Positions 59,149 through 60,067 of a stretch of DNA of 64,000 nt are shown one piece after another; the stretch's first letter is position 1; each line of letters starts with the position of its first letter. The notes beneath the pieces were generated by a model, which made no database searches, was not told where the DNA came from, and was given only the letters and a program-made list of their open reading frames with translations. Source of the stretch: Escherichia coli (GTDB taxonomy: Bacteria; Pseudomonadota; Gammaproteobacteria; Enterobacterales; Enterobacteriaceae); the NCBI RefSeq assembly GCF_022846255.1, contig NZ_AP025682.1; one strand, 5' to 3'. The translations under genes and the position numbers were made by a program.

Positions 59149-60067
59149 GAATCTTGACCTTTTTTGCTGTTATCGCCACTCCCTGCCGTGGAAGTCAGCT
59201 TAGAACAATGTACTCCCCCAGGACGGTGTTTTGAAGGTCTGCAGAATAAGATTTTGCCAGAGGGGAAGGCTCGATTGTGCTGTTAATAACTTAATAATGG
59301 CAAAATAATGAGGTGCATATGCTTAATAAGTAATGTTATGTAGTGAATTGTTCTGATTATTAATTGTAAGTGTGGTTTTTTTATCTGTAAGATAATTGTG
59401 TGAAAATGCCTCGTTTAAGAATTCACTACTGAATCGCGATGATGATATTTCCGCATTACGGAGAGTTTAACAGCGTGATGATTTCCGAGGTGTCACAATG
59501 GGGGCAAGGCGTGAAACTATTGTTAAGCGGAATTAATGAATGGGGATGATGCTAATTAATTATTATTTAATATTCAAAAAGGTTTTGTTGTGCTTATTAA
59601 TAATAGAAGATTACTTTGCCTAACATAACATAACTTTGCATCAGATAATTCGCAATGACCCTTATAAATAAAAGGTTTTTGGGGTAAAATGCTTGCATAA
59701 ATGACGGATCCCTGCTCTTGATGCCGCCTCACCATTGCTGTTTGTACGTGTTCGCGTATGACCAGCGATGCTGTACGAGAGTGGAACAAGGACTCACATT
59801 TACATTTATACAAACACGCGCATGTCATAAATAGAAAAGAGTGAGTAACTTAATAGATATGCGATCCCTGAAGATATATTCTGTGATCTACTTCAGGCAT
59901 TATAACGGAACAATGTGAGTCACTTTTTTAGTGCAACTCATATGCATTTTTACTTTCGTCCGGGTTCCGGATGAAACTGCCAGGGAGGCACATTACAAAT
60001 GGAATTGCTTGTTTGTGTGTGCACAGCATTAACCAGCTCAGTATGAGCCGCCAGTAAGTGATAATAT

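Follow-up and report, generated by a model that had tools for sequence, protein, structure and literature searches.

In Escherichia coli, the long 5′ untranslated regions (UTRs) of rpoS, flhDC and csgD act as hubs for small RNAs and Hfq, and stem-loops at mRNA 5′ ends, e.g., that of ompA, stabilise bacterial mRNAs. The intergenic region between the divergent genes alaA and lrhA offers likenesses to both. As in the leaders of rpoS, flhDC and csgD, that of lrhA begins at a distant start (371 nt), is bound by Hfq and has several small RNAs converging near the ribosome-binding site, the output being the level of a global transcription factor. It differs from them in that every effective small RNA tested represses lrhA, McaS binding without effect, and in that only its last 80 nt and the promoter are conserved in sequence throughout the family, although the leader is long everywhere (333–566 nt).

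A further likeness concerns the alaA-pigU, alaA-hexA and alaA-pecT regions of Serratia, Pantoea and related Enterobacterales, which have in common with alaA-lrhA the gene pair, the long gap and insertions that alter expression of the LrhA homologue; these species lie outside the loci that we compared, and the likeness holds at the level of the gene pair. In those other genera, PecT and HexA are under translational control by ArcZ. When the alaA-pigU region of Serratia carries insertions, pigU, which encodes the LrhA homologue, is over-expressed, and, as the Serratia authors recount of an older E. coli study, equivalent insertions there over-express lrhA. In an ST131 strain of E. coli, Tn5 insertions in the alaA-lrhA region led to hypermotility with loss of lrhA function, and the same study found IHF and lrp mutants to be hypermotile as well. 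The outcomes of insertion are thus opposite between studies (loss of lrhA in ST131, over-expression in Serratia and the older E. coli work), and a simple picture of promoter plus leader does not account for them.

We have analysed a 64-kb stretch of E. coli DNA (64,000 nt; the window), in which alaA (405 amino acids, minus strand) has its ATG at 59148 and lrhA (312 amino acids, plus strand) starts at 60068. By the sequence and the list of open reading frames (ORFs), the gap between them covers 59149–60067, i.e., 919 bp, and that list contains no long ORF within it. The gap in K-12 MG1655 is also 919 bp long, with zero features annotated inside. The sequence-only reading that preceded this work had placed the gap among the two largest gene-free stretches of the window and called it AT-rich. 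Both descriptions were right: in a 99.9%-identical annotated genome, no other intergenic gap over the window span exceeds it, the next being 629 bp (lrhA-nuoA) and 563 bp long, and its GC content is 0.384 (38%), as compared to 0.515 (51.5%) for the whole window. Only 1.1% of the 919-bp windows within the 64 kb are equally AT-rich, and in the central part (59261–59640), GC is down to 0.33. The window differs from K-12 at 23 of the 919 positions, 18 of which fall within 59300–59590; the alaA promoter and leader are identical in the two, as are the final 145 nt of the lrhA leader. All published transcript data are from K-12 and are to be read with these 23 differences in mind.

We conclude that the gap is very probably a composite regulatory region between divergent genes, conserved in the family, and not a gene-bearing one; the elements assigned below exclude about 250–380 bp of spacer. 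Its main content, i.e., the promoters, the 371-nt leader and repression via Hfq and small RNAs, is already known from the literature. The published experiments cover both transcription starts, Hfq binding, repression by small RNAs, RNA 3′ ends, Lrp ChIP at lrhA and the insertion phenotypes; our analysis places these features in the window, and shows which blocks of the gap are conserved and how constant their distances are, how stably the leader folds and that a mini-ORF lacks conservation. In this arrangement, the leftmost ~110 bp comprise the alaA promoter and a 52-nt leader; transcription of lrhA starts at 59697 and yields a structured, Hfq-bound leader of 371 nt, through which small RNAs turn lrhA down. 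In the ~425 bp of AT-rich DNA between the promoters, with its distal element, proteins that control the transcription of lrhA would most likely bind: Lrp is the published direct activator of lrhA, and LrhA itself or nucleoid proteins may be considered candidates.

Of 5426 complete E. coli genomes, 5425 contain the alaA-lrhA region, with an identity of 95–100%. A scan for LrhA in one genome per species yielded 80 loci (Serratia, Pantoea and related species are not among them), and in 77 of these, all from Enterobacteriaceae, alaA and lrhA are divergent. In the 78 sequences made up of these 77 species and the window, the gap measures 764–1140 bp, with a median of 943. The same gap in a syntenic position across species implies that its length is a conserved family trait rather than the mark of acquired DNA, although the species in the alignment are related and the counts overstate their independence. 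Horizontally acquired DNA, or the remnant of a mobile element, would fit the low GC (0.33–0.38) relative to the flanks. It would not fit the occurrence of the stretch at the same place in virtually all E. coli genomes, nor its synteny and conserved blocks in 77 other species of the family; within the gap, we found only short two-copy repeats, zero tRNAs and zero long repeats, and the few strains with IS1 there have it as a secondary insertion. Distribution and synteny refute foreign origin, to which we attach a practically negligible probability.

In the alignment of the gap from 78 species, conservation is concentrated in four blocks, with poorly conserved sequence between them:

59149–59248: block 1, alaA leader and promoter (identity 0.62–0.83)
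59509–59580: block 2, distal element (identity 0.50–0.63)
59629–59700: block 3, lrhA core promoter (identity 0.56–0.74)
59989–60067: block 4, last 80 nt of the lrhA leader (identity 0.61–0.71)

On the alaA side, the table of transcription start sites (TSSs) of Kim et al. 2012 (PMC3415461) gives a UTR of 52 nt for yfbQ/alaA, with an upstream sequence ...GGGGGAGTACATTGTTCTAA, the last base of which corresponds to 59200 in the window. The features of this end of the gap are as follows:

59149–59200, minus strand: alaA 5′ UTR of 52 nt, from the published TSS, with zero bases differing from K-12
59207–59235, minus strand: alaA promoter of sigma-70 type, with -10 TACATT (59212 to 59207), a 17-nt spacer and -35 TTCAAA (59235 to 59230)
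59241–59255, minus strand: conserved element CAAAATCTTnTTCTG, at -41 to -55 of the alaA promoter, kept in most genera aligned
59175–59199, minus strand: hairpin or palindrome GCUGACUUCC-ACGGCA-GGGAGUGGC, at +2 to +26 of the alaA mRNA

The hexamers sit where the published start predicts them. Among the 78 species, they are invariant or nearly so and their spacing is exactly constant, with a spacer of variable sequence; the distance from the alaA ATG to the -35 is 81–88 bp. From its position, CAAAATCTTnTTCTG could be an UP-element-like sequence or an activator site.

The hairpin begins with the second nucleotide of the alaA transcript. Its core CC-GGCAGG is invariant in the 78 species, and its loop ACGGCA and inner stem almost so. 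The 8-pair helix is paired in 88.5% of cases, and cells with double changes number 25 as compared to 10.5 in shuffles; compensatory changes occur in the outer stem, and at one pair, A-U has become G-C in 14 sequences. The fold energy of the hairpin is no better than that of shuffles (z = 0.38). Stem-loops of the ompA type, which stabilise mRNAs from their 5′ terminus, are comparable in position and in showing compensatory stem changes, but the near-invariance of the loop and inner stem sets the alaA hairpin apart, and suggests that its sequence is specifically recognised, in the RNA or in the palindromic DNA, and that it does more than provide structure. Judged from sequence, the element could work at the level of RNA, as a stem, or of DNA, as an operator; our literature search found no publication on the alaA +2 to +26 hairpin. 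We had also considered an attenuator, in which the GC-rich stretch between TTCAAA and TACATT would form a transcribed hairpin and an alternative partner of ACUUCC. This idea was dropped because the published start at 59200 puts that stretch in the untranscribed promoter spacer.

For lrhA, the TSS table of Kim et al. 2012 lists a UTR of 371 nt, and the upstream sequence given, ...CCCTTATAAATAAAAGGTTTTTGGGGTAAAATGC..., ends at A59697 of the window. The primer for the lrhA-lacZ fusion of Melamed et al. 2023, which begins with ATAAATGACGG, likewise starts at 59697. The promoter and its surroundings consist of:

59662–59697, plus strand: lrhA core promoter, with -35 TTATAA (59662–59667), -10 TAAAAT (59685–59690) and start A59697
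59642–59654, plus strand: promoter-proximal site CAGATAATTCGCA, at -55 to -43 of lrhA, conserved in the alignment

The -35 reads TTATAA in 63 of the 78 species; 57 have TAAGAT or TAAAAT as their -10. The site CAGATAATTCGCA agrees at 9 of 14 positions with what we take to be the RcsAB-box consensus, a match to be used as a lead only. Genomic SELEX has placed peaks of RNA polymerase holoenzyme with RpoH or RpoE at most 2 bp from the lrhA TSS, and Lrp ChIP combined with RNA-seq has classed lrhA as a gene directly activated by Lrp.

The leader that follows the lrhA start contains these features:

59697–60067, plus strand: lrhA 5′ UTR of 371 nt, from the published TSS; the Hfq and small-RNA hub
59733–59776, plus strand: strong hairpin (59733–59770) in the minimum-energy fold, followed by an RNA 3′ end at 59776 (+80) from Term-seq
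59974–59988, plus strand: candidate pairing site for ArcZ, AAACTGCCAGGGAGG, giving the most stable local duplex with the processed form of ArcZ (-17.3 kcal/mol); low confidence
60018–60027, plus strand: RNA 3′ end at 60018 from Term-seq, with CACAGC (60022–60027) nearly invariant in 81 sequences
60044–60061, plus strand: UhpU pairing site with the validated C60052, adjoining the Shine-Dalgarno-like AAGTGA at 60056–60061

Melamed et al. 2023 called the 371-nt UTR unusually long and found RIL-seq chimeras of the leader with UhpU, ArcZ, RprA and McaS. In their translational fusion, UhpU, ArcZ and RprA repressed lrhA, while McaS bound without effect; moreover, lrhA was needed for the effect of UhpU on motility. 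The pairing of UhpU with lrhA was proven by compensatory mutation, the UhpU-M1 variant restoring repression of lrhA-M1, and UhpU is the only one of the repressing small RNAs for which direct base pairing has been proven. By comparing the lrhA-M1 gBlock GAGCCGCGAGT with the wild type GAGCCGCCAGT, we identified the mutated base as C60052, at -16 from the AUG. This base and the surrounding sequence are unchanged in the window, where the local duplex of 60044–60060 with the UhpU region AACGTAACTGGTGACTTT has an energy of -13.0 kcal/mol. The AGTGA of the lrhA ribosome-binding site is nearly invariant in 81 sequences. Later publications take the regulation of lrhA by small RNAs as established.

Global RNAduplex runs of full small RNAs against the leader returned meaningless long duplexes, no better than shuffles. 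The windowed search returned sites that are plausible, but only UhpU-S beat shuffles (2/30), with a top site at 59720–59741 that is not the validated one. The ArcZ duplex at 59974–59988 does not stand out from shuffles (20/30); its site is conserved in Escherichia, Citrobacter and Salmonella. The CACAGC at 60022–60027 is complementary to the GCUGUG common to RprA and McaS, and the local RprA duplex lies at 60020–60029, a candidate site that is again no better than shuffles. As these predictions are mostly at the level of shuffles, the UhpU site rests on the published mutation and the other sites are candidates.

As a whole, the leader has a more stable fold than shuffled sequences (-111.6 versus -96.5 ± 5.4 kcal/mol; z = -2.78). 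Two Term-seq 3′ ends (Adams et al. 2021) map to it: K-12 position 2406933 corresponds to 59776 in the window, and 2406691 to 60018 (+322 of the leader, -50 from the AUG), the latter scored as not Rho-dependent. The hairpin at 59733–59770 is not a canonical intrinsic terminator, since it has no U-tract after it. Bilusic et al. 2014 co-immunoprecipitated RNAs of ~150 and ~350 nt from upstream of lrhA with Hfq, and reported accumulation of full-length lrhA mRNA only when Hfq is absent; the RNAs, first catalogued as “ig-lrhA-alaA”, were later reinterpreted as fragments of the lrhA 5′ UTR. The Term-seq ends at 59776 and 60018 would fit these short Hfq-bound fragments seen on Northern blots, which would be by-products of processing or 3′-end formation. 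A search for a riboswitch or attenuator in the leader returned zero Rfam families and zero intrinsic terminator patterns, and the leader body is poorly conserved. Two further candidates in the leader were rejected. For a GCUCA-GUA-UGAGC hairpin ahead of the ribosome-binding site, RNAalifold gave no consensus structure in 81 sequences; a second ORF with a Shine-Dalgarno sequence and ATG (59999–60046) has an unconserved start, which reads AAGG, ACGG or AGGG in other genera.

Between the conserved elements of alaA and the distal block lies the least conserved part of the gap:

59256–59508, unstranded: AT-rich spacer (GC 0.33), with identity to the window of 0.22–0.49 and a conserved length

The Serratia authors speculated that the region equivalent to 59260–59640 might contain small RNAs; insertions 825 bp from pigU alter its expression. 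An independent small-RNA gene there would also agree with the need for ~921 bp of intergenic DNA for full lrhA complementation in Pantoea, as noted by the Serratia authors, and with the original cataloguing of Hfq-bound RNAs under the intergenic name. What the Hfq-bound RNAs hybridise to, though, is the lrhA leader, to which their authors reassigned them, and the spacer that would carry such a gene has the lowest sequence conservation of the gap in the 78-species alignment. Our consensus scan yielded zero terminator-like sites in 59149–60067 and 3 promoter-like matches as against 3.2 expected; the scan missed both real promoters, since the alaA and lrhA hexamers match the consensus weakly. An Rfam scan at a permissive E-value gave matches far below threshold, the best at 18 bits for gathering thresholds of 39–80; they are mainly noise from snoRNA and miRNA models of eukaryotic or archaeal type (12–18 bits). 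Essentially, the primary transcripts of lrhA and alaA are the only ones, with no other start listed between the two genes in the TSS table, in addition to which leader-derived fragments exist. We regard a separate small-RNA gene as improbable. The sequence-only reading had thought of complex promoters, a long 5′ UTR or small RNAs for such a region: two opposite promoters and a 371-nt UTR are indeed there, while the small RNAs come down to fragments of the lrhA leader.

Beyond the spacer, in the direction of lrhA, the alignment shows one isolated patch of conservation:

59509–59580, unstranded: distal conserved element, at -188 to -117 from the lrhA start, with unconserved flanks and identity of 0.50–0.63 in 77 species

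Its core, TGTGAA-N6-TGTTAAG-N4-ATTAATGA (59510–59539), is unique in the window, with 0 occurrences expected. We consider the element a probable transcription-factor site on the pattern of its conservation, with LrhA or Lrp as possible binders. Within it, TTAAGCGGAATTAA holds a T-N11-A dyad, as in sites of LysR-type regulators, and may be read as a candidate autoregulatory site of LrhA.

The distal element underlies the 3′ part of a mini-ORF singled out in the earlier reading, which runs from an ATG at 59498 to a TAA at 59536 on the plus strand (12 codons; peptide MGARRETIVKRN), with GAGGTG at 59487–59492, 5 nt upstream. Coordinates and motif are as described, and start codon, GAGGTG and stop codon occur in this strain and K-12 alike, as would be expected of a small-protein gene or a regulatory leader peptide. 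Relative to the only mapped start of lrhA, the mini-ORF is located 161–199 bp upstream, and as it runs counter to alaA, it is part of neither mapped mRNA. E. albertii, a divergent Escherichia genome (L002) and all genera other than Escherichia lack its ATG; the conservation here (59509–59540) starts past the start codon and resembles a DNA motif. The K-12 copy carries a non-synonymous change (R5C), the curated K-12 annotation has no entry for it, and in a natural isolate, strain 503025, IS1 interrupts it at 59526–59534. The gap contains 2 ATG-initiated ORFs of 8–50 codons with a Shine-Dalgarno-like tetramer, as compared to 1.33 ± 1.16 in shuffles. A function for the mini-ORF, which would have to lie outside both mRNAs, with an unconserved ATG and an occurrence at chance level, is very improbable; we conclude that it is most probably a chance ORF over a probable protein-binding site.

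The spacing around the distal element is far more conserved than the sequence. In the 78 sequences, the alaA -35 is separated from the distal block by a median of 271 bp (mostly 260–281), and nearly all species have the start of the block (59509) at 153 ± 2 bp from the lrhA -35. The two -35 elements are kept near 425 bp apart by barely alignable sequence. The length of the lrhA leader, at 333–566 nt, is much more variable. These inter-element lengths come from a MAFFT alignment, so that they hinge on its anchors, of which those at the -35 elements are invariant. A periodicity of AA/TT dinucleotides of 10.3–10.8 bp was detected in the spacer of 24 of the 78 species, as against 11 of 78 for the leader as a control; it is not significant in the spacer of the window itself (p = 0.53). 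We take the periodicity of A/T tracts as a weak hint of a protein-DNA architecture.

Spacer and distal element may, on these grounds, form a nucleoprotein scaffold of constrained length, involving Lrp, H-NS, IHF or LrhA. We hold this to be a serious possibility, at somewhat less than an even chance, and one that complements the composite regulatory region proposed above: the lrhA promoter would be held at a set level, perhaps with alaA coupled to it, and breakage of the structure would alter lrhA output. The fixed distances between the -35 elements and between distal block and lrhA -35, next to a leader free to vary in length, argue for it, as does the excess of periodic spacers over leader controls; Lrp acts directly at lrhA, IHF and lrp mutants have hypermotility in common, and insertions in the region change lrhA or pigU expression. 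These arguments are tempered by the lack of significant periodicity in this window, by the relatedness of the species, which inflates their counts, and by the anchor dependence of the lengths. Furthermore, the outward promoters of transposons can themselves drive over-expression.

More tentatively, both sides of the gap may be read jointly, the ~425-bp tract and the distal motif acting as a scaffold or silencer that sets lrhA, possibly coupled to alaA, and the hairpin at alaA +2 to +26 acting as a specific operator or RNA element. Our literature search found no explanation for the distal motif, the fixed spacing or the alaA 5′ hairpin. A scaffold or silencer, if true, would explain why far-upstream insertions over-express lrhA in E. 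coli and pigU in Serratia.

LrhA stands near the top of the control of motility, fimbriae, RpoS, capsule and CRISPR-Cas, so the way in which its level is set matters. The comparative picture flags three conserved elements in the region, namely the motif of the distal block, the fixed spacing and the hairpin that opens the alaA mRNA, which bear on the remark in the Serratia literature about DNA far upstream of pigU/lrhA. The hairpin, if regulatory, would be a control site for the main alanine-forming transaminase.

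Three elements of the 919-bp AT-rich gap between alaA and lrhA were compared across 78 aligned species, i.e., the window and 77 other Enterobacteriaceae.

59510-59539: conserved distal motif, TGTGAA-N6-TGTTAAG-N4-ATTAATGA; the lrhA start lies some 150-190 bp downstream
59175-59199, minus strand: hairpin/palindrome at the start of the alaA mRNA, GCUGACUUCC-ACGGCA-GGGAGUGGC
59999-60046, plus strand: second short ORF, 15 codons, MELLVCVCTALTSSV, inside the lrhA leader

The distance from the start of the distal-motif block to the -35 hexamer of lrhA is fixed across the family at 153 ± 2 bp, and the motif encloses a T-N11-A dyad, of the kind typical of LysR-type sites. 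The two -35 hexamers of alaA and lrhA are themselves about 425 bp apart in most species, over a sequence that is barely alignable (59236-59661 in the window, and the equivalent part of the retrieved loci L002-L081). An AA/TT dinucleotide periodicity of 10.3-10.8 bp occurs between these hexamers in 24 of the 78 species; it is absent from the window's own segment, 59236-59661.

In the alaA hairpin, the loop and the inner stem are nearly invariant amongst the 78 species, and the outer stem shows compensatory changes from A-U to G-C. A search of the whole window yielded no second copy of this palindrome with fewer than three mismatches.

The 15-codon ORF is preceded by GGAGG, 10 nt upstream, and ends 21 nt 5′ of the lrhA AUG. 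Other genera have AAGG, ACGG or AGGG in place of this ORF's ATG, which makes the conserved AAAnGGAATTGCTT found there more likely to be a site acting at the RNA level.

The window's second largest gene-free stretch is the lrhA-nuoA gap (61007-61634; about 629 bp, GC 0.35-0.43), which contains genomic SELEX peaks for the RpoH and RpoF holoenzymes. Transcription starts of nuoA are located 125-128 nt upstream of that gene (published TSS table; Kim et al. 2012, PMC3415461). The only other stretch of the window that equals the alaA-lrhA gap in AT-richness is ~9721-11250. By the annotation of a near-identical genome, it corresponds to the 563-bp gap that follows sixA, together with a fimbrial operon's first gene.

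Two loci have unusual records. In L086 (NZ_CP031215.1), the locus-tag numbering goes straight from DV870_RS00330 for alaA to DV870_RS00340 for lrhA; it seems that a feature formerly called between the two genes has since been withdrawn from the annotation. L061 (CACSKA010000019.1), labelled Chryseobacterium sp., is a contig with a typical Enterobacteriaceae alaA-lrhA locus (LrhA 78% and AlaA 94% identical); this assembly probably suffers from contamination or a wrong label.

Insertions of IS1 were found in two E. coli strains. In SCPM-O-B-12142 (L088, NZ_CP144928.1), IS1 lies in the AT-rich spacer between the promoters, with a breakpoint near window position 59315. Past the element, the sequence switches to fragments of elaD, and therefore this strain appears to have lost lrhA, the entire nuo operon and several neighbouring genes by an IS-mediated deletion. 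In strain 503025 (L087, NZ_CP025892.1), IS1 is inserted inside the distal motif (window 59526-59534) with a 9-bp target duplication, so that the left half of the motif, along with the spacer, is no longer contiguous with the lrhA promoter; this insertion could constitute a natural regulatory variant of lrhA.
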